Shown here in pieces: positions 1,156-52,826 of a DNA stretch of 64,000 bases (positions are counted from its first letter, which is position 1; each line of letters opens with the position of its first letter). The notes under the pieces were generated by a model. The model saw only the letters and a program-made list of their open reading frames with translations. It ran no database searches and was not told where the DNA came from. Made by a program: the position numbers and the translations under genes. This DNA is from Nitrosopumilus sp. (GTDB taxonomy: Archaea > Thermoproteota > Nitrososphaeria > Nitrososphaerales > Nitrosopumilaceae), in the NCBI GenBank assembly GCA_965203315.1, contig OZ241857.1, positions 448,001-512,000 of the forward strand, written 5' to 3'.

Positions 1156-2988
1156 GTGAAGACAGTACAGATCCACTCGTTCCAGCTGGTACCGCTAAAC
1201 CTAGAGTTTGCATCGAGTTCTACACAGGTGGCAGGAGTATCAGAACGAGACATCATAATATCGCAGTTTCTATCGTTATTTGACAAGCTAGAGAGTCCAT
1301 TCTGGCTAGATGTGATACGCGACTATGAAGAACTGTTATTCTACAAGACTCCTCGATACTGTGCCTTTGATAGTACAATACTAAACGTAACTGATGAAAA
1401 TCCAGAGAGCATTCTCAAAGGTGCAGGTGTAAAGTATACTACAGTATCATCACGCAAATGGAACATATCATACGAGTCACCAAACTATTGCAAGCTAGAA
1501 GATGATCTATACGCCAAAGCATACACATTATCAGTACTACATGACGATCTTGTACCTGGTTGGATATACGACATATATCGATATGCAGATGCATTGAGAA
1601 TATTTGTAGAACCGATACCTGTAGAAAAGTATCAGAGTATTATCGCAAATCACAAGACTGCAGCAATAACACTATCCTCTACATTAAAGATGGACTTGGC
1701 AGAGAACATTTCAATAATCAAAGAACTAGTACTGAACAAGAAACTAGAGAAATTATACTTTACCAAAGTCATACCTATCGTACTAGCCAAAGATCTAAAC
1801 ACATTAAATGAAAAACAAAAGTCCTTTGTACAAAACACAAAGAATGTTCCCGGTATCGATACTGCAAAGCATATACAATCACAGTTGATTCGCGGTAAAC
1901 TAGGACAGAACATCCTAATGTCAACATCTGCATTTCATGCATTACTGCCTTTTTGCACATCTGAACTATACGAAGATGGTGGCACACTACTCGGCGAGAA
2001 CATGCTTACCGGAAATCCTATACGATGGAACATCAACAACAGGTTAAACCGTAATACCGTACTTGCAGCTACATCGGGCTCTGGCAAGACTACACTTGCA
2101 ATGTTGATAATTCATGCATTTGAGAGAATGTATCCACAGAGTTTCATATTTGGTGTAGACCCAGAGAACGAGTATGCTGCACTAGGTCAAAACATGGGAT
2201 TCGAATACATTGATTACTCGTTTGGTCGCAAGATGGGTCTTGATCTATTCAAGATGGTACCAGACTCGTTCGCAGCTGCTGAAACTCTGTGTAATGCACT
2301 AGGAGTACCCGAGATAGACAGAATCCAACCAAACACAGCAGCTGCCAAACTAGCAGGTATGGATATCAAACAGCGTAGCTTTGCAGAGTTTTACAAGTAT
2401 CTACAAGAGTCTGATGACAAAGAGATCATTCGTTACTTTAAAGCACTAGCAAGTCCACCATACTCTGATTTCTTTGAAGGTAAGCCACCTGTATCCAACA
2501 AGATAATACTATCGCTCAAGAATATCGGCTCTGCAGGTGGAACAGTCCATCGGCTCATTACACAGATATCGTTATCATACGCGATGGGCAGAGCACTACT
2601 CATGCCAAAGATAATCCCCAAATTGTTCATGCTAGATGAGGTCTGGATGTTACTCCAACATGATACACTGGGAAATTACATACAAAATCTATCTCGGCGT
2701 GGAAGAAAGTACAACATCAATCTAATGATGGCTACACAGAATATAGAAGATATGACAGACAACATATCGGCAAGAAACGTTCTTGTAAACAGCGATACTG
2801 TCATGTTTCTACGACAGTCCGAAGCTACGATATCATCACTAAAAGAACACTTTGTGTTATCTGATAGGGCAGTATCATTTTTGTTGCAACTAGAACGTGG
2901 TCAAGCGTTGATCAAATATGGCAACAACATGGTACCTGCAAGGATTCTACCCGACAAGGCACAGTTGGAGCTATTTAGACCGAGATAA
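1156..2988 (+). CDS. VirB4/TraC-like conjugation ATPase (HerA/FtsK superfamily)
   Basis: Walker A ATSGSGKT, VDPENEY, Walker B FMLDEVW, RRGRKY..ATQ; TATA-like TTTTAAA about 25 nt before the GTG start. Confidence 0.8.
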   Translation: MKTVQIHSFQLVPLNLEFASSSTQVAGVSERDIIISQFLSLFDKLESPFWLDVIRDYEELLFYKTPRYCAFDSTILNVTDENPESILKGAGVKYTTVSSRKWNISYESPNYCKLEDDLYAKAYTLSVLHDDLVPGWIYDIYRYADALRIFVEPIPVEKYQSIIANHKTAAITLSSTLKMDLAENISIIKELVLNKKLEKLYFTKVIPIVLAKDLNTLNEKQKSFVQNTKNVPGIDTAKHIQSQLIRGKLGQNILMSTSAFHALLPFCTSELYEDGGTLLGENMLTGNPIRWNINNRLNRNTVLAATSGSGKTTLAMLIIHAFERMYPQSFIFGVDPENEYAALGQNMGFEYIDYSFGRKMGLDLFKMVPDSFAAAETLCNALGVPEIDRIQPNTAAAKLAGMDIKQRSFAEFYKYLQESDDKEIIRYFKALASPPYSDFFEGKPPVSNKIILSLKNIGSAGGTVHRLITQISLSYAMGRALLMPKIIPKLFMLDEVWMLLQHDTLGNYIQNLSRRGRKYNINLMMATQNIEDMTDNISARNVLVNSDTVMFLRQSEATISSLKEHFVLSDRAVSFLLQLERGQALIKYGNNMVPARILPDKAQLELFRPR

Positions 2989-2989
2989 G

Positions 2990-5623
2990 ATGCCACAGAC
3001 CATTACAAATCCCAATGACTATTCCGTAATAGGATATCTAGACAAGAGAAAGGTACTGGCTATTCCAAATATATCTAGACAGAATCTACTAATTCTAGGA
3101 GAGATAGGCTCTGGCAAATCTAGTATACTACGACTGTTGATATATCAAGATATTGTAGCAGGTAGAGGATTCCTACTAGCAGAGAATCACTCTGAACTAT
3201 CCAGAGAGATACTGTCGATGATTCCGCCAGAGCAATACCACAAGCTAGTGTACATTAGTCTGTCATCTATAAAAAAATACGACAAGACACTACGATTCAA
3301 TCCACTAGAGATGGATGATCCTCAAGATGCAGGAATGATTGCGTTAAACTTTACCGAGTGTTTAGCAAAAGCATTTGCTGACTCGTGGGGTGCACGAGTA
3401 GAGACATGTGCTAGAAACGGAGCACTATCGGTAATAGGCACACAGAGTAATACCATAGGTGCAATGTTAAAACTACTCACAGACAAGGACTTTCGTCAGA
3501 CGTTCATACCTGAAATAGCCAACAAACAGGCAAGAGATTTCTTTTCACACGTATATGACGAACAGTATCCAAAAGAGGCAGGAGGCGTAATATTCAACAA
3601 ACTCAACAAGATGCTGACTATACCAGAAATGGATGCAATGTTTAATACGAAAAAGTCATCGATATCATTTTTGGATATCATAAACAACGGTATGTATGTT
3701 GTACTAGATTTTGGCGGACTACCAAACGATATGGTGATGTTTCTAGGCAATGTCTTTCTGCATCTATTTTATACACAGTACAAGAAACGAGCCAAGAATA
3801 GATCTGGCATATACGATACATTCAATCTGTATCTAGACGAGGTACAAATGTTCTCACCACCGATGATTCGAGAGTTACTGAATACAGTTCGTAAATACGG
3901 TATAAAGGCCACAATAGCAACACAGTCGATAACTGCAGTAGGCAAAGAACTATCAGACGAGATAACAACGCTGTGTAGAGCAGTGGCATGTTTCAGGTGT
4001 GACAATACAACAGCATATCATCTAAAGTCTATCTTGCCTATCAAACCCGAAGCTCAACAACAGCTGTCGTTTCACTATTTTTCATACTATGGAGCAGGAG
4101 ATAAACCCATACGAGCGGTAGCCAAAACTAAACACATGAACATTCCAGACACATCAGAACAAGCAAGTAAAGCAAGCGTAATGAATCTAGGTTCGTTTAT
4201 ATCTCTAGACAAGTACTATACATCACAAGGTGGAAATGCAGATGTCGTACTATCACCACTAGAGTTTGGCATACTGAATCTATTACGAATGGAGAATAGA
4301 GACATGACCAAAAACGAGATAACAGAAAAGATAACTCGTATATTTGTAACCAATCCACGCGCAATAACAAACGCACTAAACGATACATTGGTCGCTACCA
4401 ATAGATTCGTTGCAATAAAAGACGTCATGTCAGACGATGGTGATGATAAACTAGAGACTAGATACGTGATCACCAAGACAGCACATTCTAAAATATTTAG
4501 TCATGCAGCAGCAGGTAGACGCGCAGGAAGTGATCTACATCTACGTACTATATTTACCATAATGGATCTACAAACAAATCTGTACTGTTACTGTATTCCC
4601 GATCTTGGTAAAAACACATCACAGAAGGCAGACCTTGTTATATTTTCACCAAAAAAGATCAAACCCAAAGATCCAAAACAAGAGACGTTATACGGAACAA
4701 AATTCCATCCAACCGAATGGTCAGATAAAATAGTTGCGGTGGAGGTAGAGACTGCACCTAACAAACACTGGGATCAGATACACATCAACTATATAAAAAA
4801 TGAAAAGATGGGATACTTTACATGGTTTGTTGTATACGATGAGAATGCAAAACGAGGCATATATCACACACTGCAAGAACACGGTATATCTTCTCAAGAC
4901 TATTCGATACTAGTATATGACAAAAAGTCACTACTTGGCGCCGATATCTCTCTAGTTCGTTCAGATATTGAGTCGTGTATATGGAAAGTAATATTTGACA
5001 ACAGAGGTGCAACCGTACAGAATATCTGCGATTCACTAGTAGATTATGATAAATCGGATATCAAGAGAGCGATACAACACATGAGTGAAACGGGAGCATT
5101 AGAATCTAGACGGAATAAGAGTGACACAGCTGATATCTGGTGTATATCTGCAATACGTAACGCCAGTAATGATTCACTGGGTGTAGAGGCCATACCTGGA
5201 ACAACACCACAAGACAAGGAGCGATATGCAGCAACACGAGAGATATCTGACGTATCTGTCGATGTCAATCCAAATACAGTACAAGATACATCTTTGAATA
5301 TCGAAAAAATACTAGATCATCCGGTGGTTCGAACTAGACCGACTCTAGACGATCATATCTTTACAGATACACCGATATCTGATGTGCAGGACTCGCAAAC
5401 ATCTAGTTCTATCCCGGATAAAGAGTGTACAGATGCCAAACCAGACATGACAAACGTGCAGTTGCTAGAGTACTGGATCAACATACATGATCTGACTGAT
5501 CCAGAATCTCAATCAGTACTAAAGGATATTGAAGCAAAGTTGATGAACCGAGGATTAATGGTAAAATCTAGAAGAGGCAAGTTCTTTCTATCAAAGATTC
5601 CCAAAAATCAAAAGTCCAAGTAG
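2990..5623 (+). CDS. VirD4/TraD-like coupling ATPase fused to wHTH and PD-(D/E)xK-like (replication-relaxation-like) C-terminal domains
   Basis: GEIGSGKS, FNPLE, LYLDEVQ, RKYG..ATQ; C-terminal H..IPD..ADLVIF..AVEVET; ATG directly after the VirB4-like stop. Confidence 0.7.
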   Translation: MPQTITNPNDYSVIGYLDKRKVLAIPNISRQNLLILGEIGSGKSSILRLLIYQDIVAGRGFLLAENHSELSREILSMIPPEQYHKLVYISLSSIKKYDKTLRFNPLEMDDPQDAGMIALNFTECLAKAFADSWGARVETCARNGALSVIGTQSNTIGAMLKLLTDKDFRQTFIPEIANKQARDFFSHVYDEQYPKEAGGVIFNKLNKMLTIPEMDAMFNTKKSSISFLDIINNGMYVVLDFGGLPNDMVMFLGNVFLHLFYTQYKKRAKNRSGIYDTFNLYLDEVQMFSPPMIRELLNTVRKYGIKATIATQSITAVGKELSDEITTLCRAVACFRCDNTTAYHLKSILPIKPEAQQQLSFHYFSYYGAGDKPIRAVAKTKHMNIPDTSEQASKASVMNLGSFISLDKYYTSQGGNADVVLSPLEFGILNLLRMENRDMTKNEITEKITRIFVTNPRAITNALNDTLVATNRFVAIKDVMSDDGDDKLETRYVITKTAHSKIFSHAAAGRRAGSDLHLRTIFTIMDLQTNLYCYCIPDLGKNTSQKADLVIFSPKKIKPKDPKQETLYGTKFHPTEWSDKIVAVEVETAPNKHWDQIHINYIKNEKMGYFTWFVVYDENAKRGIYHTLQEHGISSQDYSILVYDKKSLLGADISLVRSDIESCIWKVIFDNRGATVQNICDSLVDYDKSDIKRAIQHMSETGALESRRNKSDTADIWCISAIRNASNDSLGVEAIPGTTPQDKERYAATREISDVSVDVNPNTVQDTSLNIEKILDHPVVRTRPTLDDHIFTDTPISDVQDSQTSSSIPDKECTDAKPDMTNVQLLEYWINIHDLTDPESQSVLKDIEAKLMNRGLMVKSRRGKFFLSKIPKNQKSK

Positions 5624-18441: not shown

Positions 18442-18838
18442 TACCATGTTGTATCATTTTTTACTAATCACGTCTTATACGATATATGCTATATTCTCTG
18501 TACTGATAGGTATAATCGCAAATGTATTTTTGAACGACTATGGCATATGGATTGCAATATTTGTGTACATTGGATGTTTCTTTGTAGATTATATCACGAC
18601 CATTAGAGTGAAAAATTATACCAAACATGAGATAAATCCATTATTTCAGGTACTGAATCACAAACTTGATTCCACTACATCGTTTATGGTGATACTAGGA
18701 ATTGGTGTAACTGTCAATCTAGTTGCATTCTATACCATACAAGATACTGTTCTATCGTATATCTTGAGCATTGGACACTTGTGTATGGCTGCCAATAATC
18801 ACCACTACTCTAAAAAGATAAACATGGAGGTAATCTAG
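18425..18838 (+). CDS. Multi-pass membrane protein
   Basis: Hydrophobic throughout; DYITT..EINP motif. Confidence 0.6.
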   Translation: MVLVNSTMLYHFLLITSYTIYAIFSVLIGIIANVFLNDYGIWIAIFVYIGCFFVDYITTIRVKNYTKHEINPLFQVLNHKLDSTTSFMVILGIGVTVNLVAFYTIQDTVLSYILSIGHLCMAANNHHYSKKINMEVI

Positions 18839-19338
18839 TGATTACTGTACAGATAGACAATGTCGTTACAACTGCTCAAGTTACTAGATTCAACACAAAT
18901 AGTATCGTATATTGGCCAAAAGTAGAGTTTCGACCAAATGGTTATCCTGGAATCTGTATACATGAAAGACATGTAACTCTATCAGTATTTGACTCTGGCA
19001 AGATCGTATCCAAAGGTAGCAAAGGCACGAAAGATGCTATTCAATCTATACTAGACTTTATTCAAAGACTAAAAAAGTCTGGAATCAAGGTCTCTCTAAA
19101 GTCAAAACCTACCATCAGTATGATCGTAGCACATGTTAGATTTGAGCCAAAGAGACTAGACATTCAAAGACTCAAAGAGTTGCCAGAGTTTCATAAAGAG
19201 ATCAAGAGATTTGCCAGCATACAACTAAAGTTCAAAGAGGGTAATGTTCAGGCATACGAGTCCAAGATTGTAATAAGCAGTACAAGCATTGATGATATCA
19301 CTCGCATAGCAAAAAAGATGAGGCGATACACATGCTAA
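18838..19338 (+). CDS. Divergent TATA-binding-protein-like protein
   Basis: QIDNVVTT..EFRPNGYPGI..LSVFDSGKIVSKGSK matches the first TBP repeat; second repeat degenerate. Confidence 0.7.
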   Translation: MITVQIDNVVTTAQVTRFNTNSIVYWPKVEFRPNGYPGICIHERHVTLSVFDSGKIVSKGSKGTKDAIQSILDFIQRLKKSGIKVSLKSKPTISMIVAHVRFEPKRLDIQRLKELPEFHKEIKRFASIQLKFKEGNVQAYESKIVISSTSIDDITRIAKKMRRYTC

Positions 19339-21880: not shown

Positions 21881-22690
21881 ATGGTTGAAAATATTCAAGC
21901 AATACCAGTTAACTGACTTGATATCTCAGAATATAACGTCAGAAAATCTAATGTACTTCAAGACATAGATGAACTAGCTAAAAACATTGCAGAAGTAGGA
22001 GTAAAAAACCCGCTTACAGTTAAAAAGACTGGAAAAAACAAATTCGAAATAGTAACAGGTCAAAGGAGATATATAGCTGCCCAAAAAGCAGGCTTGAAAA
22101 CAGTTCCATGCATAATTAGAGAGTATGATTCTGAAATAGACTCCATGATAGAATCATTTAGTGAAAACGTGTTTCGCTCGGATATGACGCTGAGTGATAA
22201 AGCAAAAACTGCTATTACTCTATTAAAAATGCTTGATAACGATAAAAACAAGGTTGCTAAAAATCTAGGAGTCCATATCTCAACACTTGAAAGATATCTA
22301 GAACATGAATCTCTTCCGAAGAAACTACAAAAACTAATTAGAGAAAAAAAGATGAACTTTTATACAGCAAAAACTATTTACAAGAAAACAAAACATGATG
22401 AGATACAAAGAAACAAAATTATTGAGTCGTATATTAAAAAAGAGAAAAAAGATAAAAACAATTTTTACGTTGCGTTAAAAGAGAGCAAAGCCAGCGACAA
22501 ACTTGAAGACATAGAAAAAAATTCCAAAGAAATTGCAAATTCACAAAAATATATCTTGCGCTCACCAACTGCTCAAAATAAATTTATACAAAAAATTGCA
22601 AAGGATAAAAACATATCTCCTGAAATGGTCTTACAAAATTTTATAGCTGTAGGTATTGAGGAATTTAAGCACGGGAGAATGAGAATTTAA
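21881..22690 (+). pseudogene. ParB/Srx-domain protein with an early in-frame TGA
   Basis: MVENIQAIPVN*LDISEYNVRK..GVKNPL..IVTGQRRYIAA in frame with ORF 22094 (SENVFRSD, HTH). Confidence 0.75.
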
Positions 22691-33311: not shown

Positions 33312-33611
33312 TCAAGCAGATCGACTCCTGTTATCTCGTAATCGTTTATTGGTACATTTGCAGTTTCGTTCTTTGATGTGTACGACAGACTTTGAGTCTG
33401 TATCGGATTTATCATATTTTGATATTAAAAGATAGTCATCAATTTTAATCCCCAGACTAGCTAGATGCTCAATGTTATTACACAAGAATTCTAGATCATC
33501 TGCTATCTCTTTTAGTCTAGTTCGGATACGGCGCTTGTATAATTTCTTGTTTGCAGCAGACAAGACTCCTGGCGAACTGACCACTTGTCTCTCTATATCA
33601 CTTAGACACAT
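33312..33611 (-). CDS. Small basic helical protein, paralogue 1
   Basis: MCLSDIERQVVSSP..YKRRIRTRLKEIADDLEFL; overlaps the actin-like stop. Confidence 0.65.
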   Translation of the reverse strand: MCLSDIERQVVSSPGVLSAANKKLYKRRIRTRLKEIADDLEFLCNNIEHLASLGIKIDDYLLISKYDKSDTDSKSVVHIKERNCKCTNKRLRDNRSRSA

Positions 33612-34468
33612 TTTGCCTGCCTCAACATTCCTAGTGCGTTTGCAAATACTGGCTCTTTAGCTACTTGTAAATTGGATATCGTATCGTTTCTGATCTCTGA
33701 TATCAACTTTGGTATTAATGCTCCTCCGCCTGCACATATTACAGGTAGGTTTGAATAATTTAAAACGACCTTTTCTAATGCATTTGAAATCGTACCTGCT
33801 AAAACTTTACGATACTGTGCTAGCTCGTTATCTCGTCTCTGAAATACAGTACTGTCTAGATACTCTACCATCGAAGTAGATATGGCATCTGTGATATCTC
33901 CAACTCCGTTCATTATAGTCTGACCATACGCAATATCGTCTCCAATCACTACCATTATCTCGGTTGTACCGTGGCCGATATGACATACGATACCATTCTG
34001 TATATTCTCATGTATCAGAGTGGCGCGTGCTTGGTACATCATTCCAAAGAACTTTGGTTTGAATCTCTCTACAACTGCAGCCTTGATCTGTTTTGATTTA
34101 TGTCGAGCTACATAAGGTATACCTGCGACTATAATCAAATCTTCATAGCTCTTTGGAGCATTATAGATGGGTTCTGTATGCGCCTTGAGAACTCTGTCCA
34201 AGGCATGTTGTATCAGAGCTAGATAGTCTCTCATGGATGTAGGCGCACCTCTATACACGGGAGTCTTTAGAACTATGGAGCGAATCGGTTCTAGCTTTAC
34301 TGCCGCATCACCTACTGCATACACTTCACTAGATTGATTGAGATCTAGTTTGTGCCCTCTTGCAATAACTGATGGAAACTTGAACTGTTGTGTACTGGTT
34401 GCGACCTTGACAGTCCCAGTCCCAATGTCTAGTCCAACTGTATTCAGATTCAACAATCTATACAGCAA
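33602..34468 (-). CDS. ParM/MreB-like actin-fold ATPase
   Basis: Phosphate-1 GLDIGTGTVK, FPS, phosphate-2 HIGHGTTE, adenosine AGGGA, ANALG. Confidence 0.85.
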   Translation of the reverse strand: MLYRLLNLNTVGLDIGTGTVKVATSTQQFKFPSVIARGHKLDLNQSSEVYAVGDAAVKLEPIRSIVLKTPVYRGAPTSMRDYLALIQHALDRVLKAHTEPIYNAPKSYEDLIIVAGIPYVARHKSKQIKAAVVERFKPKFFGMMYQARATLIHENIQNGIVCHIGHGTTEIMVVIGDDIAYGQTIMNGVGDITDAISTSMVEYLDSTVFQRRDNELAQYRKVLAGTISNALEKVVLNYSNLPVICAGGGALIPKLISEIRNDTISNLQVAKEPVFANALGMLRQAKCV

Positions 34469-34857: not shown

Positions 34858-35553
34858 ATGAATCGTACAAAAGAATCCAAACCACAACACAGCACGGACT
34901 GTCCGACATACACACCACCAAACTGTTCACGTGCACTTCCAACAGATACCGAACCAAAACGCAATCTAATAAAATACCTGCCAATCGGTCTGAGTATAAT
35001 TGCCCTAGTATGTGCAATCGTTCTCACATATCCGAACTGGAGCGACAGCGCAACATCTCTACTAGGTGAATTCAAAGAAGGCAGTGTCTCATTTGGAGAG
35101 AGGCTTGAATCATTTGGTAGAGGAACATCAACAGCTTTTCACAACTCTTTCCTACAAGATGAATCTACAGAGATAGAATCTCCAAATGTAGACATAATCC
35201 GTGTAGGTGCAGCTGTAGTAAAACACACAGACAAACCAATAACAAACACAACAGCAGCTAGTACACTAACAAACGCAACGACAGTCAACACAGAAATCCA
35301 AACCAACAATACAAAAAACAAACAATACACAGCATCTAGTACATTTGAACAAGAGATGTACAACTGTCTTTTGCGGACAGGTGGACTAGAAGCAGTTGTA
35401 ATGTGCGAACGAGAAGGTACCATGTACTTTGTTGTGGATGAGCCCCAAGATACAGCAGTTCGATATCAGACCAATCTAACCATTGCCGATGACAGATACT
35501 TTGTCATTTATGAGCAGGGTAGAGAACAACACATCCTCGAGTTGTATCCCTAG
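34858..35553 (+). CDS. Single-TM hypothetical protein with a Thr-rich linker
   Basis: One hydrophobic segment; followed by hairpin tgcca-gtaa-tggca and a T-tract. Confidence 0.6.
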   Translation: MNRTKESKPQHSTDCPTYTPPNCSRALPTDTEPKRNLIKYLPIGLSIIALVCAIVLTYPNWSDSATSLLGEFKEGSVSFGERLESFGRGTSTAFHNSFLQDESTEIESPNVDIIRVGAAVVKHTDKPITNTTAASTLTNATTVNTEIQTNNTKNKQYTASSTFEQEMYNCLLRTGGLEAVVMCEREGTMYFVVDEPQDTAVRYQTNLTIADDRYFVIYEQGREQHILELYP

Positions 35554-35631: not shown

Positions 35632-35726
35632 AGGGGCGAGACAGGCGATGATTATTCACCCAGCACTGAGAGAGTTTGACCCCTCTCAATGATGAATCTG
35701 GCGTTGTATGAGTCCTCGAATCCCCT
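35632..35726 (+). ncRNA. Box C/D guide RNA A1 (BHB-flanked)
   Basis: C ATGATTA, guide ttcacccagca, D' CTGA, gagag/ctctc hairpin, C' ATGATGA, guide atctggcgttgt, D ATGA. Confidence 0.8.
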
Positions 35727-35767
35727 ACTTTATAATTCTCACTTTTCGCCAGATTTGGCTTTTGTAA

Positions 35768-35834
35768 AGTGAGGGCGATGATGAGAGAAACGACGTCTGA
35801 CTCTGATGGGCGTTACGATAACTGAGCCCTCACT
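35768..35834 (+). ncRNA. Box C/D guide RNA B1
   Basis: 9-bp stem agtgagggc/gccctcact, C ATGATGA, gagaaacgacgt, CTGA, C' CTGATGG, gcgttacgataa, CTGA. Confidence 0.85.
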
Positions 35835-35868
35835 GTATGTACATTTCTTCTAACTATTAACTGTAATC

Positions 35869-35960
35869 GGGCGAGACAGGCGATGATGAGACGGAGCTAT
35901 ATGAGAGGGCATAGCCCCCTCAATGATTAGAGCCTGTTAATCAGAGTCCTCGAATCCCCT
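35869..35960 (+). ncRNA. Box C/D guide RNA A2 (BHB-flanked)
   Basis: C ATGATGA, gacggagctat, D' ATGA, gaggg/ccctc hairpin, C' ATGATTA, gagcctgttaat, D CAGA. Confidence 0.8.
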
Positions 35961-36001
35961 ACTTAATAATTTTCACTTTCAGCCAGATTTGGCTTTTGTA
36001 A

Positions 36002-36070
36002 AGTGAGGGCGATGATGAGAGAAACGAAATCTGACTCCATGATGAGTTACGACTAGTCTGAGCCCTCACT
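36002..36070 (+). ncRNA. Box C/D guide RNA B2 (all four boxes consensus)
   Basis: agtgagggc-g-ATGATGA-gagaaacgaaat-CTGA-ctcc-ATGATGA-gttacgactagt-CTGA-gccctcact. Confidence 0.92.
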
Positions 36071-36105
36071 GTCTGTACATTTCTTCTAACTATTAACTGT
36101 AATCT

Positions 36106-36196
36106 GGCGAGACAGACGATGAAGAGTAAGAACTCCACTGAGAGTGTTTGACCCCTCTCAATGATGAATGAGTTGCACAGAGTCCTCGAATCCCCT
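36106..36196 (+). ncRNA. Box C/D guide RNA A3 (BHB-flanked)
   Basis: C ATGAAGA, gtaagaactcca, CTGA, hairpin, C' ATGATGA, atgagttgca, D CAGA. Confidence 0.8.
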
Positions 36197-36236
36197 ACTT
36201 AATAATTCTCGCTTGTTGCCAGATTTGGCTTTGTAA

Positions 36237-36307
36237 AGTGAGGGCAATGATGAGTGAAACGACGTCTGACATCTAGTGATGAAAGATAACCTGTCTGAGC
36301 CCTCACT
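36237..36307 (+). ncRNA. Box C/D guide RNA B3
   Basis: Stem, ATGATGA, gtgaaacgacgt, CTGA, GTGATGA, aagataacctgt, CTGA, stem. Confidence 0.9.
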
Positions 36308-36340
36308 GTTTGTACATTTTGCTAGCTATTAACTGTACTT

Positions 36341-36430
36341 GGCCGCGACAGACGATGATTATTAACTCAACACTGAGAGAAGATACTCCTCTCATTGATG
36401 AATCTGGCGTTGTAAGTCATCGAATTCACC
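36341..36430 (+). ncRNA. Box C/D guide RNA A4, degenerate (D box and BHB eroded)
   Basis: ATGATTA, ttaactcaaca, CTGA, hairpin, TTGATGA, atctggcgttg, no clear D box. Confidence 0.6.
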
Positions 36431-36470
36431 ATGTTAGAATTATCCCTTTTCGCCAGATTTGGCTTTGTAA

Positions 36471-36537
36471 AGTGAGGGCAATGATGAGTGAAACGACTTC
36501 TGACTCTGATGAGTTACGACTAGTTTGAGCCCTCGCT
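36471..36537 (+). ncRNA. Box C/D guide RNA B4
   Basis: Stem agtgagggc/gccctcgct (G-U retained), ATGATGA, gtgaaacgactt, CTGA, CTGATGA, gttacgactagt, TTGA. Confidence 0.85.
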
Positions 36538-36569
36538 TGCTGTACATTTCGTCGAGTTATTACATCTAC

Positions 36570-36666
36570 AGGGGCGAGACAGACGATGAGGATGGATAGG
36601 AAATCTGAGGGCGTTTGACCACCTCTCAATGATGAACGAATCACATTCCGAGTCCTCGAACCCCCT
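36570..36666 (+). ncRNA. Box C/D guide RNA A5 (perfect BHB)
   Basis: agggg-cgag-aca-gac, ATGAGGA, tggataggaaat, CTGA, hairpin, ATGATGA, acgaatcacatt, CCGA, gtc-ctcg-aac-cccct. Confidence 0.8.
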
Positions 36667-37285: not shown

Positions 37286-37894
37286 ATGAGCGACGAAAAA
37301 ACCAACAGACTATCTCGTAGAGAACAGATTCGCAAGTCTCTCAGAGACAATACAAAGTATACGTCGATTCTAACTGCAGGTGTATCGGCACTTGTGATGG
37401 GAGTTATGGCACTACTTGTAACTCCACCAGAACAAGATGCATATGCGCTAGCAATCATGGGAATCGGCATATCCTTTATTATCGCAAGTATCGTAGGGCT
37501 GATAATGGCATCGCAGACAGATGAGATTGCAGCTCGTATTTATGAGCGATTCGACAGACAAGATGAATTAGCAGAGAGACGTCATCAAGAGATGATATCA
37601 GTACTCAAAGAGATATCCAATAAACTAGACGCATTAGACAAGCTAGACAAGCTAGATGTCATGGATAGTAAACTGGACGTCATAGTCAACAACACCACCA
37701 AACTGGATGTCATAGTCAACAAACTAGACACCATAGACAACAACACCACCACCAAACTGGATGTCATAGTCAACAAACTAGACACCATAGACAACAACAC
37801 CACCACCAAACTGGATGTCATAGTCAACAAACTAGACACCATAGACAGTAAACTAGACACCATAGACAACAACACTAGACCATCTAATGCGTAG
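37286..37894 (+). CDS. 2-TM coiled-coil repeat protein, copy 1 (202 aa)
   Basis: Two TM helices, GISFIIASIVGLIMA..ERFDRQ, KLDVIVNKLDTIDNNTTT repeats. Confidence 0.8.
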   Translation: MSDEKTNRLSRREQIRKSLRDNTKYTSILTAGVSALVMGVMALLVTPPEQDAYALAIMGIGISFIIASIVGLIMASQTDEIAARIYERFDRQDELAERRHQEMISVLKEISNKLDALDKLDKLDVMDSKLDVIVNNTTKLDVIVNKLDTIDNNTTTKLDVIVNKLDTIDNNTTTKLDVIVNKLDTIDSKLDTIDNNTRPSNA

Positions 37895-38079
37895 CAAAAA
37901 ACCCAAAATCTTTTTTCTCGACTGAGACGTAAATCCCAAACCCGCATGGAATTTCTAATTTCCCCACACACTAGACTCAGCTAGGCAGGGTGTGCGGATT
38001 AACTGAACCATATCTCATATTCCTGTACGTATAATCTAGTTCAGAGAGTACCAGGTTGAGTGAGACAATTGAAAAAAGC

Positions 38080-38658
38080 ATGAGCGACGAAAAAACCAAC
38101 AGACTATCTCGTAGAGAACAGATTCGCAAGTCTCTCAGAGACAATACAAAGTATACGTCGATTCTAACTGCAGGTGTATCGGCACTTGTGATGGGAGTTA
38201 TGGCACTACTTGTAACTCCACCAGAACAAGATGCATATGCGCTAGCAATCATGGGAATCGGCATATCCTTTATTATCGCAAGTATCGTAGGGCTGATAAT
38301 GGCATCGCAGACAGATGAGATTGCAGCTCGTATTTATGAGCGATTCGACAGACAAGATGAATTAGCAGAGAGACGTCATCAAGAGATGATATCAGTACTC
38401 AAAGAGATATCCAATAAACTAGACGCATTAGACAAGCTAGACAAGCTAGATGTCATGGATAGTAAACTGGATGTCATAGTCAACAAACTAGACACCATAG
38501 ACAACAACACCACCACCAAACTGGATGTCATAGTCAACAAACTAGACACCATAGACAACAACACCACCACCAAACTGGATGTCATAGTCAACAAACTAGA
38601 CACCATAGACAGTAAACTAGACACCATAGACAACAACACTAGACCATCTAATGCGTAG
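38080..38658 (+). CDS. 2-TM coiled-coil repeat protein, copy 2 (192 aa)
   Basis: As copy 1, 10 aa shorter. Confidence 0.8.
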   Translation: MSDEKTNRLSRREQIRKSLRDNTKYTSILTAGVSALVMGVMALLVTPPEQDAYALAIMGIGISFIIASIVGLIMASQTDEIAARIYERFDRQDELAERRHQEMISVLKEISNKLDALDKLDKLDVMDSKLDVIVNKLDTIDNNTTTKLDVIVNKLDTIDNNTTTKLDVIVNKLDTIDSKLDTIDNNTRPSNA

Positions 38659-38843
38659 CAAAAAACCCAAAATCTTTTTTCTCGACTGAGACGTAAATCC
38701 CAAACCCGCATGGAATTTCTAATTTCCCCACACACTAGACTCAGCTAGGCAGGGTGTGCGGATTAACTGAACCATATCTCATATTCCTGTACGTATAATC
38801 TAGTTCAGAGAGTACCAGGTTGAGTGAGACAATTGAAAAAAGC

Positions 38844-39368
38844 ATGAGCGACGAAAAAACCAACAGACTATCTCGTAGAGAACAGATTCGCAAGTCTCTC
38901 AGAGACAATACAAAGTATACGTCGATTCTAACTGCAGGTGTATCGGCACTTGTGATGGGAGTTATGGCACTACTTGTAACTCCACCAGAACAAGATGCAT
39001 ATGCGCTAGCAATCATGGGAATCGGCATATCCTTTATTATCGCAAGTATCGTAGGGCTGATAATGGCATCGCAGACAGATGAGATTGCAGCTCGTATTTA
39101 TGAGCGATTCGACAGACAAGATGAATTAGCAGAGAGACGTCATCAAGAGATGATATCAGTACTCAAAGAGATATCCAATAAACTAGACGCATTAGACAAG
39201 CTAGACAAGCTAGATGTCATGGATAGTAAACTGGATGTCATAGTCAACAAACTAGACACCATAGACAACAACACCACCACCAAACTGGATGTCATAGTCA
39301 ACAAACTAGACACCATAGACAGTAAACTAGACACCATAGACAACAACACTAGACCATCTAATGCGTAG
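38844..39368 (+). CDS. 2-TM coiled-coil repeat protein, copy 3 (174 aa)
   Basis: As copy 2, one 18-aa repeat shorter. Confidence 0.8.
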   Translation: MSDEKTNRLSRREQIRKSLRDNTKYTSILTAGVSALVMGVMALLVTPPEQDAYALAIMGIGISFIIASIVGLIMASQTDEIAARIYERFDRQDELAERRHQEMISVLKEISNKLDALDKLDKLDVMDSKLDVIVNKLDTIDNNTTTKLDVIVNKLDTIDSKLDTIDNNTRPSNA

Positions 39369-40634: not shown

Positions 40635-41903
40635 ATGAGCAAATTACACACAATCGTTGGTTTCAAACAGACCAACAAAGTTGTTCATAAATTGAACAGC
40701 AAAGCTGTTTCCAATGGAAGCAGAATAGTCTTGAATAGAGACTATCAAAAGAGTACACGCAAAAACTATAAGAGAATTGGCAAGAAAGAGCAATTCGACA
40801 TACCTGAACAGAAACTGTTGCAAAAGATGCAAAAGTTTCTCTACCAAAATACAACGTACAGAGGCAAACCACGCAAGATCGTCTACAACAAGATAACCAA
40901 AGAGGATAGAATGGTCATAGTGTTTTCTATAAAGGTCACTCTACAGTATGATCCGCCATCGATATGGGCCATAAAGATATTTGATCAGAGTGATCACATA
41001 GTACACTATGAAGAAGAAAAGCCAGTAGAGACATTCAAGGTTATAGTAGGTGTATATGATCAAAGCAAGCTGTACTGTATGCGTACTAGAAAGTTTAGAA
41101 TGCCGACAAAATATGACAAAGTATATGATCCAAACGATCTAGTCAGTATACGTGACAGTCACTTATGTACATCCTGCAACAGATGGTACAAGAGTCCCGA
41201 TTCAGACAAGTGTTTCTGTGGCACTCCACTAAAAAAGATAGAAAGAGTATGTCACAAAGACAACATACAGTATGATGATGAATATTTGATCGAAAAGAGA
41301 TGTCTGCAAGAGATCGAGTATCAATCTGTCGCACCGCGTCGCAGATCATCTAATCGTAGAACAACTGATAGTGAGTTTGTACCACAGTACACAACAAATA
41401 CAGTACTAGACCACTTGGACATAGAACTAGAAGATGAACCACCAGTACCGCTAACAGTACAACAGAGTGCCGCACAGAACAAGCTAGATTACATCTGGAA
41501 CAAGAACTGCGTTCTAGGAAAGACGTGCATCATAAAGCAGTACGGCGAATACAAGATGTCACCTGATCCCGAAAATCAGCAAGCACTACGTTCGCACATA
41601 TACAACTGTACAAAAGATCCAAATCGCAATCTGTTCGATGTTGTAGTTGATGAGACCGAGTCTGTAAAAACGTCCACGATATCATCTACAGATTCACAAC
41701 CAGATCTATATCACAGAGACCCAGAAAAGATAAGAAACGATCTAGTTACACACGACTTTGAACTATCTCAAGATGAGATCGAACTGCTAGATGTACCATA
41801 CTGTACACTAGACTGTGATGGTAAAAACAGATTTTGGAACCTAGTCAACAAGGCTCGTCGCAACCAGAAACAGTTCAACGTTGTATACAAACTTGTACAA
41901 TAG
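40635..41903 (+). CDS. Hypothetical protein with a Zn-ribbon
   Basis: 422-aa ORF, CTSC..CFCG, SD aggagg. Confidence 0.7.
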   Translation: MSKLHTIVGFKQTNKVVHKLNSKAVSNGSRIVLNRDYQKSTRKNYKRIGKKEQFDIPEQKLLQKMQKFLYQNTTYRGKPRKIVYNKITKEDRMVIVFSIKVTLQYDPPSIWAIKIFDQSDHIVHYEEEKPVETFKVIVGVYDQSKLYCMRTRKFRMPTKYDKVYDPNDLVSIRDSHLCTSCNRWYKSPDSDKCFCGTPLKKIERVCHKDNIQYDDEYLIEKRCLQEIEYQSVAPRRRSSNRRTTDSEFVPQYTTNTVLDHLDIELEDEPPVPLTVQQSAAQNKLDYIWNKNCVLGKTCIIKQYGEYKMSPDPENQQALRSHIYNCTKDPNRNLFDVVVDETESVKTSTISSTDSQPDLYHRDPEKIRNDLVTHDFELSQDEIELLDVPYCTLDCDGKNRFWNLVNKARRNQKQFNVVYKLVQ

Positions 41904-41948
41904 AGATGGCGTGTATCTCAAACCCACATCCCATTTTTGAGGATAAAA

Positions 41949-42770
41949 ATGAGTCAAGTAAGAACCTCTGAGAAAGCCAGAGAGATACTAGTCGAACTAG
42001 CAGAAAAGTTCGGCAAGACCGAATTCGTAGACAGTTCGGCCAAGATGTTGATAGATGCTCGTACATATGCAAAGCCATCGAGCTCATGGTCATTGGGTAA
42101 TCAACTAGCAATGTACTTTGGTGGTACCATGGATGCAAGAGGATACAATCAATGGAACGCAGTAGGACGACATGTCAAGAAAGGAGCAAAGGCAATCTAC
42201 ATTCTAGGTCCAATGACTAGAAAGATCGAGCCCAAGGAGGGTGAAGACGAACGAATCATAATAACTGGATTTAGAGCGATACCCGTATTCCGATTCGAAG
42301 ATACAAAAGGTAAACCACTAAAAGAGTACAAACCCAAGACACTTCCACCGTTGTATCATCTAGCAGAAGAGAATGATATCAAGGTAGAGTATATCGAATC
42401 TAGACATGGTGAATATGGTTCGATACACATTCCAACAAAGAACATGACGCTGAGTACAGAGTCGCCGGATACGTTCTTGCACGAACTGATGCATCTATAC
42501 GACAACAAGAGTCAAGAACTGAAACCAGGACAAGACCCCATACAAGAGACTGTAGCACAGCTTGGTGCATGTGTTCTAGCCAAGATGTATGGATATGACG
42601 TAGAGGCACATACATGGAACTATATCTCAGCATATGCGGGTTCAAAAGATCCCAAAGCTGTTGGCAACATGTGCTTCAAGGTATTACAACGTGTTCAGCT
42701 AGCAATAAACAAGATACTAGATGATGCACAAGAACTGAAACCAATCGAGGCAAGTATAACAAAGATGTAG
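41949..42770 (+). CDS. ArdC-like antirestriction protein (ssDNA-binding domain plus zincin HExxH domain)
   Basis: WSLGNQL, GYNQWNAVGRHVKKGAKAIYILGP, PVF, LHELMH, ETVAQL. Confidence 0.8.
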   Translation: MSQVRTSEKAREILVELAEKFGKTEFVDSSAKMLIDARTYAKPSSSWSLGNQLAMYFGGTMDARGYNQWNAVGRHVKKGAKAIYILGPMTRKIEPKEGEDERIIITGFRAIPVFRFEDTKGKPLKEYKPKTLPPLYHLAEENDIKVEYIESRHGEYGSIHIPTKNMTLSTESPDTFLHELMHLYDNKSQELKPGQDPIQETVAQLGACVLAKMYGYDVEAHTWNYISAYAGSKDPKAVGNMCFKVLQRVQLAINKILDDAQELKPIEASITKM

Positions 42771-44938: not shown

Positions 44939-45072
44939 CACGCCAAAGTGTAGAGACGCTATCTCTTGCGCAATCAGTATCCTACTGCATAATATCATAT
45001 GATATCACATGATATCGTACTAGGACTGCTGCTCGGCAGGATTGCATGCGAAGAGATTCTTACAAGGAGGTG
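44922..45072 (+). promoter_or_regulatory. Repeated hairpin leader R1
   Basis: tagaccaaaaggactagcacgccaaagtgtagag..atctcttgcgcaatc..ctgctgctcggcaggattgcatgcgaagagatt..ggagg. Confidence 0.7.
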
Positions 45073-45077
45073 AAAGT

Positions 45078-45674
45078 ATGAGAATAAGAAAGAGTATCTC
45101 AAACAAGATACAATCCTTTAGCGAGTCTATTGCTAAAGAGACTGTATATAGGATCGTGATGTTTGCAGGAATAGCTCTAACTGGATATGGAATTTATCTA
45201 CAAGACATAGCAATAATCATATCTGGATCAGCTTTAATAACTGCAAGTGTCATAGGTATAGTAATGTCTATGCAGACCAACAAGATTGCACATACTATCT
45301 ATGAGCGATTTGATAGACAAGATAAATTGGCGGATATGCGCCACAAAGAGACAATATCAGTACTAAAAGAGATGATGTCAGTACTAAAAGAGATAGTTAC
45401 ACTGCTAAAAGATAGCAAAGAATGTAACGAAAGAATGAGTCAAACACTAGACAGAATCGACAAAAACACAAGTAAACTAGACAGAATCGACAAAAACACA
45501 AGTAAACTAGACAGAATCGACAAAAACACAAGTAAACTAGACAGAATCGACAAAAACACAAGTAAACTAGACAGAATCGACAAAAACACAAGTAAACTAG
45601 ACAGAATCGACAAAAACACAAGTAAACTAGACAGAATCGACAAAAACACAAGTAAACTAGCTGAGAAACTGTAA
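45078..45674 (+). CDS. 2-TM coiled-coil family protein with seven LDRIDKNTSK repeats
   Basis: SD ggaggtga; ASVIGIVMSMQT..ERFDRQ. Confidence 0.8.
   Translation: MRIRKSISNKIQSFSESIAKETVYRIVMFAGIALTGYGIYLQDIAIIISGSALITASVIGIVMSMQTNKIAHTIYERFDRQDKLADMRHKETISVLKEMMSVLKEIVTLLKDSKECNERMSQTLDRIDKNTSKLDRIDKNTSKLDRIDKNTSKLDRIDKNTSKLDRIDKNTSKLDRIDKNTSKLDRIDKNTSKLAEKL
45451..45660 (+). repeat. Seven perfect 30-bp coding tandem repeats
   Basis: acagaatcgacaaaaacacaagtaaactag x7. Confidence 0.95.
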
Positions 45675-52430: not shown

Positions 52431-52826
52431 ATGAGAATAAGAAAGAGCATCTCAAACAAGATACAATCCTTTAGCGAGTCTATTGCTAAAGAGACTGTAT
52501 ACAGGATCGTAATGTTTGCAGGAATAGCTCTAACTGGATATGGGATTTATCTACAAGACATAGCAATAATCATATCTGGATCAGCTTTAATAGCTGCAAG
52601 TGTCATAGGTATAGTAATGTCTATGCAGACCAACAAGATTGCAGGTAATCTTTACAATCGAATTGACAAACAAACTGCACTCTTGGAATCAAGCCTCAAC
52701 AAGATGGTTGCTGTACTAGAACGAATGGACAAGAAACTGGACAAATTAGACACAATAGATACAAAGCTGGACAAATTAGACACAATAGATACAAAGCTGG
52801 ACAATATAGACAAGAAAATGGACTAG
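52431..52826 (+). CDS. 2-TM coiled-coil family protein
   Basis: N-terminus nearly identical to the 45078 protein; different KLDKLDTIDT tail. Confidence 0.8.
   Translation: MRIRKSISNKIQSFSESIAKETVYRIVMFAGIALTGYGIYLQDIAIIISGSALIAASVIGIVMSMQTNKIAGNLYNRIDKQTALLESSLNKMVAVLERMDKKLDKLDTIDTKLDKLDTIDTKLDNIDKKMD

Follow-up and report, generated by a model that had tools for sequence, protein, structure and literature searches.

Introduction

The box C/D small RNAs (sRNAs) described in the archaeal genera Sulfolobus, Pyrobaculum, Pyrococcus and Methanococcus combine C/D and C'/D' boxes with spacers of ~12 nucleotides (nt) and a terminal stem, depend on L7Ae, Nop5 and fibrillarin, and target functional centers of ribosomal RNA (rRNA) under the N+5 rule, in which the residue facing the fifth guide position upstream of box D or D' is methylated. 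In the present study, we analyzed a 64,000-nt stretch of DNA from Nitrosopumilus sp. (contig OZ241857.1, positions 448,001 to 512,000; hereafter the window) that carries a tandem array resembling these sRNAs in all of these respects, the third gene of which, designated A2, has a guide that places A2451 of 23S rRNA at N+5. The array differs from the known archaeal sRNAs in the lack of an Rfam match, a hairpin that closes C'/D' in its A-type units, its nine-unit tandem organization, the linkage of its scaffolds to insertion sequences (ISs) in related genomes, and A2451 as a target. We regard A2, with a probability of roughly 0.5, as a genuine accessory and strain-variable rRNA guide of a class that recurs in ammonia-oxidizing archaea, and not as a ribosome poison, because the organisms that carry the guide are viable, some have it in several copies, and it is seemingly under purifying selection.

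A2451 is an unexpected aim because its 2'-OH is considered to be needed for the formation of peptide bonds. According to PMC2919715, the ribose 2'-OH of A2451 is the most critical rRNA group for peptide-bond synthesis, which supports a statement to this effect in the first-pass annotation of this DNA, and a deoxy-abasic analogue at A2451 gave a relative rate of 0.01. Whether A2451 is methylated also matters because a yeast small nucleolar RNA (snoRNA) directed to the same adenine has been reported as lethal: this snoRNA, aimed at 25S A2820 by the method of Liu and Fournier, is said to induce cell death (PMC5025663).

In archaea, the N+5 rule and spacers of ~12 nt are the norm, and duplexes of 9-10 base pairs (bp) were efficiently methylated in vitro (PMC7229835). 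Hotspots of rRNA methylation surround the peptidyl-transferase center (PMC4644070, PMC7994747), clusters of two or three sRNA genes have been reported (PMC7994747), and predicted sites include 16S G1494 in M. maripaludis and A1408 in S. acidocaldarius and N. equitans (PMC4644070). Dennis et al. proposed chaperone sRNAs with two guides on strands that meet (PMC4644070). The number 2451 does not occur in the main text of that paper, and its supplementary site tables and those of PMC6009581 could hold a prediction equivalent to A2451. In our literature search, "Am2451" returned one unrelated paper, and no paper was found on box C/D sRNAs of Thaumarchaeota or ammonia-oxidizing archaea, or on IS-linked box C/D sRNAs.

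Results

Anatomy and target of A2

The first-pass annotation had read a D guide followed by CAGA as a box C/D guide, and the complete anatomy of a C/D gene was recovered around the guide at 35930-35941 and the box at 35942-35945. The C/D boxes, internal C'/D' boxes, spacers of ~12 nt and a 9-10 bp rRNA match at N+5 that characterize archaeal box C/D sRNAs are all present, and the fold has a z of -3.2 against shuffles; A2 may be a structurally competent copy of such a gene. Its parts are as follows.

35869-35959, + strand: A2 sRNA gene with the A-type scaffold (match to covariance model R1, 87.7 bits)
35883-35889, + strand: box C, ATGATGA, canonical (unit parsing)
35890-35900, + strand: D' guide GACGGAGCTAT, 11 nt, without a convincing rRNA or tRNA target
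35901-35904, + strand: box D' variant ATGA, with GA kept
35905-35921, + strand: internal hairpin GAGGG/CCCTC between D' and C', its stem kept in 5/5 A units and in relatives
35922-35929, + strand: box C' variant AATGATTA, which keeps GA
35930-35941, + strand: D guide GAGCCTGTTAAT, 12 nt, complement of 23S U2449-C2458, with T35937 at position 5
35942-35945, + strand: box D variant CAGA, aligned with NNGA plus GTCCTCG of A1, A3 and A5
35946-35952, + strand: 3' half of the terminal stem, GTCCTCG, pairing with CGAG..GRC at 35872-35881 (RNAalifold pairs in 4-5 of 5 units)

Box D is non-canonical, as had been noted from the outset: GA is present, while position 2 is A in place of U and would pair with U5 of box C. 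The best match of the D' guide to rRNA and transfer RNA (tRNA) consisted of 7 contiguous pairs, with two tRNAs.

The host genome (G000; 2.47 Mb, 7 contigs, archaeal), in which the window corresponds to G000:C1:448001-512000, has a set of rRNA genes that includes a single 23S gene (G000:C1:297496-300486). The first-pass annotation had made its prediction dependent on a complement in host 23S rRNA, and this gene contains it: the target strand reads GAUAACAGGCUC, within the longer stretch CAGGGATAACAGGCTCG. Residues are numbered as in Escherichia coli after the alignment of host 16S and 23S rRNA to rrsH and rrlH of strain K-12; A2544 of host 23S rRNA is A2451 in E. coli. When the D guide is numbered upstream from box D, its positions 3-12 make up an uninterrupted run of 10 Watson-Crick pairs with U2449-C2458; G2447 faces position 1 in a U.G wobble, and A2448 faces position 2 in an A.A mismatch, which had been correctly anticipated. 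The pairing originally given, U2449-U2457, was borne out and proved to be too short by one, because residue 2458 of host 23S rRNA is C. Position 5 (T35937), which stands five nucleotides upstream of box D, lies opposite A2451; the alignment to rrlH confirmed this assignment, and the register is unambiguous because CAGA holds the only GA of that stretch.

Among 20000 shuffles of the D guide, 207 (~1%) reached at least 10 contiguous pairs covering position 5 in 16S, 23S and 5S rRNA. Genome-wide, no 11- or 12-nt complement of the guide was found besides the antisense strand of the gene itself, and the non-self 10-nt complements in G000 numbered four, the 23S site among them. Another 10-nt complement, at G000:C1:1870618, lies just past the fibrillarin open reading frame (ORF) match on the same strand and is probably a coincidence, given that 10-mers are expected by chance.

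The host looks like a mesophilic ammonia oxidizer: archaeal amoA is present, and its mesophilic appearance stems from an rRNA G+C content of ~50%. A fibrillarin-Nop5 gene pair and L7Ae are encoded, and hence all the core proteins that an archaeal box C/D sRNA requires. Over the whole genome, the sole match to the Pfam Nop model is the canonical Nop5 that adjoins fibrillarin (C1:1871476-1872108).

Organization of the array

A2 is one of nine box C/D sRNA genes in tandem, which Tandem Repeats Finder (TRF) detected with a period of 234 and 4.1 copies. The covariance models R1 (A units) and R2 match exactly nine places, all in the array, and there is no strong-scoring match elsewhere in G000. In the 64-kb window, Rfam gave 0 matches at the gathering threshold and no tRNAs were found. 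The array and its other units are listed below.

35634-36665, + strand: array of nine box C/D sRNA genes in the order A1 B1 A2 B2 A3 B3 A4 B4 A5 (TRF, covariance models R1/R2 and unit parsing)
35634-35725, + strand: A1, D guide ATCTGGCGTTGT against 16S C970, 10 pairs
35765-35838, + strand: B1, canonical C/D with an 8-bp stem, D' guide against 16S C1407, 9 pairs
35999-36074, + strand: B2, D guide against 16S G1494, 9 pairs
36105-36195, + strand: A3, 10-nt D guide, best matches to 23S near E. coli 750 or to 16S A1319 (8 pairs)
36234-36311, + strand: B3, D' guide against 16S C1407, 10 pairs
36341-36429, + strand: A4, same D guide as A1 (16S C970), box D without GA and stem altered
36468-36541, + strand: B4, D' guide against 16S C1407 (9 pairs) and D guide against 16S G1494 (9 pairs)
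36572-36665, + strand: A5, D' guide against 23S C2515, 10 pairs

The units are 65-90 nt in length, with guides of 10-12 nt. The B units are textbook archaeal C/D sRNAs, in which an 8-bp terminal stem is followed by RUGAUGA, a 12-nt guide, CUGA, a short linker, UGAUGA, a second 12-nt guide and CUGA. The A units are longer and consist of a stem, box C, a guide of 11-12 nt, box D', the conserved hairpin, box C', a guide of 10-12 nt, NNGA and the stem; the hairpin would turn C'/D' into a closed kink-turn instead of a K-loop. None of the five A units has a canonical CUGA as box D, and GA is kept in A1, A2, A3 and A5 and is gone from A4, which is probably decaying. The pair formed by position 6 of box C and position 1 of box D is U-A in A1 (a joint change) and G-C in the other A units, and positions 5 and 2 form G-C in A5; these co-changes fit a paired non-canonical stem. 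The D guide of A1 against 16S C970 is the ancestral guide of the A-type family.

Guides of the array match rRNA more often than shuffled guides do. Of the 16 distinct guides, 7 are joined to sense 16S, 23S or 5S rRNA by at least 9 contiguous Watson-Crick pairs that include position 5, and 4 by at least 10; for shuffled guides, the corresponding means were 0.69 (with a maximum of 4 in 2000 trials) and 0.12, and antisense rRNA matched 0/16. Pairwise identity is 43% in the guide columns of the A units versus 81% in the rest of the repeat, and the D' guide of the B units (16S C1407) is conserved at 83%. The guides appear to behave as exchangeable cassettes within a conserved frame, because the guide columns are hypervariable and the remainder of the repeat is conserved.

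A strict C/D descriptor applied to the whole host genome matched B1-B3 alone. A looser one gave about six further candidates against 0-1 in shuffles, some of them with rRNA matches; among the handful of C/D candidates outside the array, none has boxes aimed at the A2451 strand. One native candidate outside the window (G000:C1:1561690-1561736) has a D' guide, ACCTATCCCT, with only 7 nt pairing to 23S 2444-2450, which adjoins the target of A2; this match is too short for interpretation.

Recurrence of the A2451 register

The pattern TGATKA-N0-5-GCCTGTTA-N0-6-CWGA was searched for in 401 genomes of the class and gave 8 matches in 5 genomes, with 0 for the reversed control; recurrence searches of this kind need near-canonical boxes, and related genomes are not independent. 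A member of another genus of the family (G355) has an array of at least 11 units in which the guide occurs twice at a distance of 306 bp, as the D' guides CAGCCTGTTATT and CAGCCTGTTATA, with A2451 at N+5. Two genomes of another family of the order (G032 and G295) carry the D' guides AAGCCTGTTATG and AAGCCTGTTATT on a third scaffold with a 10-bp stem, three copies being present in G295. A2451 is again at N+5 in all three because the core CCTGTT occupies guide positions 4-9 of 12, as in A2, and the 23S target is present in all four genomes with this register. The remaining genome, from the same genus as the host (G140), has the guide AGCCTGTTATCT with the register shifted by one, so that A2450 is at N+5.

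Five distinct genes have the third, Nitrosocaldus-type scaffold; their D' guides agree at 11 of 12 positions, with variation only at position 1, opposite G2447, and their partner D guides differ throughout. The A2451 guide thus appears, as judged from this comparison of sequences, to be under purifying selection in its carriers. Guide position 12 tracks residue 2458 of 23S rRNA, with A facing U in G032 and G295 and G facing C in G000, and the guide of A2 differs from that of G355 at two positions, one difference improving the pairing to C2458 of the host. The partner guide in G032 matches 23S U2586, which also belongs to the active-site shell. The guide class is kept in at least three scaffolds of ammonia-oxidizing archaea.

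Scans of large collections yielded one more gene with the third scaffold (L092) and re-found two others, and the sRNAs of G295 recur at loci of Candidatus Nitrosocaldus schleperae. L092, a Nitrosocaldus-type C/D sRNA with the A2451 guide, lies on a 3755-bp contig recorded as part of a Caldimicrobium metagenome-assembled genome; this contig may be mis-binned archaeal DNA. Among the 11 stretches from the genome-contig scan, 7 were bacterial without C/D context and were taken as chance, as were 2 of the 4 from the metagenome scan. The genus-wide pattern TGATKA-N0-4-AGCCTGTTA had 10 matches in 9 of 151 genomes, against 2 for the control: five come from a single conserved context that appears to be coding and has no C/D boxes, another three are isolated, and only A2 and the G140 guide are sRNA-like.

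Relatives of the scaffolds and their linkage to insertion sequences

Covariance models were used for relatives because BLAST of the whole array against 40 of them was nearly empty, with one weak match. R1 detected single copies in 9 of the 150 other genomes of the genus; in G000, it detected only the five array copies. Most A-type relatives keep the D guide of the A1 type, xxCTGGCGTTxx (16S C970), and have an A-rich, variable D' guide. At 8 of 10 A-type loci (L021-L026, L029 and L030), the same strand carries, ~23-40 nt downstream, a gene for an IS240-like DDE transposase (PF13610), and a TATA-like box, read by eye, is conserved between the sRNA and the transposase ATG; of the other two loci, one has transposase remnants only and one has none. 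The best B-type matches outside G000 (L035, L036, L039, L068 and L070) show the same arrangement of an sRNA followed by PF13610, and L034 has a transposase remnant; among the 29 best-per-genome R2 loci, 4 are IS-linked. Two copies in G055 share 1268 bp at 92% identity, and the sRNA is inside the repeated unit because these copies begin 10 nt upstream of it; no terminal inverted repeats were found for this copy pair with 9-mers. These findings suggest that insertion sequences carry methylation-guide RNAs in relatives of the host.

G000 has 26 matches to the IS240-like transposase family, and its own IS copies lack a leader sRNA. In the array of the window, no sRNA stands 23-40 nt upstream of a same-strand PF13610 gene, and no transposase follows A5.

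Other tandem C/D arrays, with periods of about 130-300 bp, were found in the genus and family: G135 (L065), G141 (L066), G164 (L063 and L064) and G355 (L083). A set of guides against 16S h31 (C970/A969) and 23S A1969 recurs across them, with 23S A2451 in addition in G355. The G355 array also has ATCTGGCGTTGT (16S C970) and GTTCCATTCATT (23S A1969); GTTCCATTCATT and a related 16S h31 guide are also present in arrays of the host's genus.

Genomic context and strain variation

The window is a mobile, IS-rich island that encodes TraG/VirD4-like and HerA-like ATPases and contains ParM-like and ParB-like genes, several restriction-modification genes, a TATA-binding protein (TBP) paralogue, MoxR-VWA genes and at least 8 transposase ORFs. 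The following ORFs suggest an integrated conjugative element.

1156-5623: two large ORFs with P-loop domains of the TraG/VirD4 and HerA/AAA_10 types
22094-22690: ORF with a ParB helix-turn-helix domain
33602-34468: ParM-like ORF
41937-42770: ArdC-N-like ORF

The array is present in public sequencing runs at 99% identity or more, and one run (X3) covers A2. The ORFs neighboring the array (34858-35553 and 40635-41903) had no Pfam match and no Atlas match, and tblastx found no genes in common between its flanks and the sRNA loci of relatives.

Some further elements of the island were recorded. The TBP paralogue (18838-19338) has 166 amino acids (aa), with one TBP repeat matched. At 37286-39368, three tandem paralogous ORFs of 202, 200 and 182 aa with a membrane segment contain perfect internal repeats of 54 nt and 21 nt, which TRF placed at 37687-37880, 38464-38644 and 39293-39354. 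A perfect 30-nt tandem repeat of 7.2 copies (45446-45660) is located within the ORF 45042-45674, and a similar 30-nt repeat is present at 52737-52812.

Discussion

Our reading of A2 as an accessory guide implies the following sequence of events. Scaffolds A and B may have derived from sRNAs that form the 5' leader unit of IS240-like elements in related species, and would then have been amplified in the host, with guide segments swapped like cassettes. The A2 RNA would be bound by L7Ae, Nop5 and fibrillarin of the host, and its 12-nt D guide would form a 9-10 bp duplex with nascent 23S rRNA at U2449-C2458, so that, by the N+5 rule, the A2451 ribose would come to lie in the fibrillarin site. What follows may be a transient masking or chaperoning of the peptidyl-transferase strand in 50S assembly and also the 2'-O-methylation of A2451, probably in only part of the ribosomes. 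The analysis establishes the anatomy of the sequence, its complementarity to rRNA, the enrichment over chance, the presence of the core proteins in the genome, the recurring register and the linkage to insertion sequences, and we infer expression, the assembly of a ribonucleoprotein (RNP), methylation and its stoichiometry. There may be about one chance in three that A2451 is actually methylated in this organism, and the likelihood would be somewhat higher for carriers of the Nitrosocaldus type.

Several points weigh against this reading. A2 is the weakest and most degenerate version of the A2451 guide, with its mismatch at position 2 and its boxes C' (AUGAUUA), D' (AUGA) and D (CAGA), and the minimum-energy fold shows partial self-complementarity of its two guides, a possible source of competition with target binding. 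The A2451 register is carried by only 4 of the 401 genomes, in a sporadic manner, and the shift by one in G140 weakens the view that A2451 is the specifically selected site. The recurrence could also reflect one guide cassette that moved between scaffolds, with the boxes serving as the homology, rather than independent selection. The biochemistry of A2451 (PMC2919715) and the yeast snoRNA (PMC5025663) predict harm from its full methylation. Parts of the array without cover in the public runs X4 and X5 were left out of consideration, except for one contig of X4 (depth 47) that joins 35747 to 35982 and skips 234 bases, which is one repeat period comprising B1 and A2. Either A2 is dispensable or this join is an artifact of repeat collapse; if real, it represents a copy-number polymorphism of the array, and collapse during assembly is possible because the join falls within a 46-nt stretch common to both spacers.

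The two main rivals for A2 specifically are that it pairs without methylating and that it is dead. In the former case, A2 and its relatives would serve as assembly chaperones or masks of the peptidyl-transferase strand, with N+5 being incidental or methylation being blocked. The guide of G140 is consistent with this, being on the same strand with the register off by one, as is the sRNA of G032, whose two guides aim at A2451 and U2586, on strands that come together in the active site, in the manner that Dennis et al. proposed for chaperones (PMC4644070), and the conflict with an essential 2'-OH would be removed. However, a pure chaperone would need no fixed distance to box D or D', whereas three scaffolds share exactly the same register and the five Nitrosocaldus-type genes agree at 11 of 12 guide positions, and canonical boxes and 12-nt spacers are the needs of an active methylation RNP; we consider pairing alone to be unlikely. 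An equally doubtful proposal is that A2 is a drifting, non-functional paralogue left by the amplification of the array, its match to 23S rRNA being without consequence. Its non-canonical D, D' and C' boxes and the mismatch at position 2 point in this direction, as do the neighboring A4, which clearly lacks a box D, and the X4 contig without B1 and A2. On the other hand, a match this good is reached by only ~1% of shuffles, one of the only two differences from the G355 guide betters the pairing to C2458, and the GA pairs of the kink-turn, the 12-nt spacer and the stem are intact.

Two further explanations appear to be considerably less probable. The first-pass annotation had suggested that the guide could poison ribosomes for host shut-off, addiction or abortive defense. 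A weapon of this kind would suit an island with conjugation-type ATPases, ParM-like and ParB-like genes, restriction-modification genes and many transposases, scaffolds that are IS-borne in relatives, and the cell death ascribed to the yeast snoRNA (PMC5025663). Nevertheless, other lineages of free-living ammonia oxidizers keep guides in the same register on their chromosomes, where a genome can have as many as three copies and purifying selection is indicated, the co-array guides are ordinary rRNA guides common to the arrays of other genomes, and the surroundings of the array revealed neither a partner or antidote gene nor a regulator or phage context; this suggestion was not supported, and we regard it as highly improbable. 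An effect on drug or ribotoxin sensitivity, which the annotation also proposed, may still exist. The slightest chance is given to a TIGR-Tas-like array, in which dual spacers would guide a Nop-domain protein to DNA instead of rRNA. Tandem units, box C/D motifs, two spacers of 8-12 nt, palindromic stems and an association with mobile elements are shared features (PMC12045711); however, canonical Nop5 is the only Nop protein that Pfam finds genome-wide, the ORFs around the array gave no Nop-like match even at E = 5, unit lengths of 65-90 nt go together with full kink-turn boxes, and rRNA matches of the guides are confined to the sense strand. A very divergent Tas protein might have escaped these searches.

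A naturally kept guide that places the ribose of A2451 in a methyltransferase site would be a natural experiment on the tolerance or use of Am2451. Guide RNAs at the 5' ends of insertion sequences, amplified into guide-variable arrays in a conjugative island, would constitute a new route for the spread and diversification of ribosome modifications; no paper describing IS-borne, array-amplified methylation guides as such a route was found in our literature search. It is improbable, in our estimate, that some ammonia-oxidizing archaea carry 2'-O-methyl-A2451 in part or all of their ribosomes, written by guide cassettes on IS elements and conjugative islands. If this is true, the arrays would be transferable, RNA-programmed kits that re-decorate drug-binding and catalytic centers (23S A2451, 16S C1407/G1494 and 16S C970), which might blunt antibiotics against the peptidyl-transferase or decoding site or ribotoxins, or tune translation, and the 2'-OH of A2451 would be dispensable, or needed only in a sub-population of ribosomes, in a natural organism.

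Besides the archaeal sRNAs, several known systems resemble parts of what was found here. The TIGR-Tas stem-loop arrays also consist of tandem dual-spacer units with box C/D-like motifs on mobile elements, with processed RNAs of ~36 nt and spacers of ~9 nt (PMC12045711), whereas the array of the window has no detected Tas protein, units of full kink-turn sRNA size, a period of 234 bp and guides that match rRNA. In the engineered yeast snoRNA against 25S A2820, a C/D guide has the same catalytic adenine at its methylation position; the A2 guide, in contrast, is natural and retained by viable genomes. Yeast snR38, a natural C/D snoRNA, has a target a few nt 5' of the catalytic adenine on the same 25S strand, given as G2811 (PMC5025663), while Gm2815 co-occurs with snR38 in a literature listing. 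This target would correspond to G2446 of E. coli, and the register of snR38 puts a neighboring G, not A2451, at N+5. Epstein-Barr virus v-snoRNA1 is a guide RNA encoded by a mobile genetic entity, and it reportedly methylates rRNA of the host near the A site; it acts at other sites and belongs to a eukaryotic virus, whereas the carriers here are archaeal IS elements and an island. The accessory ribose methylation of a drug-binding rRNA nucleotide is also performed by protein-only 2'-O-methyltransferases such as those of thiostrepton and avilamycin resistance, which provide antibiotic self-resistance and are protein-guided, unlike the RNA-guided A2.

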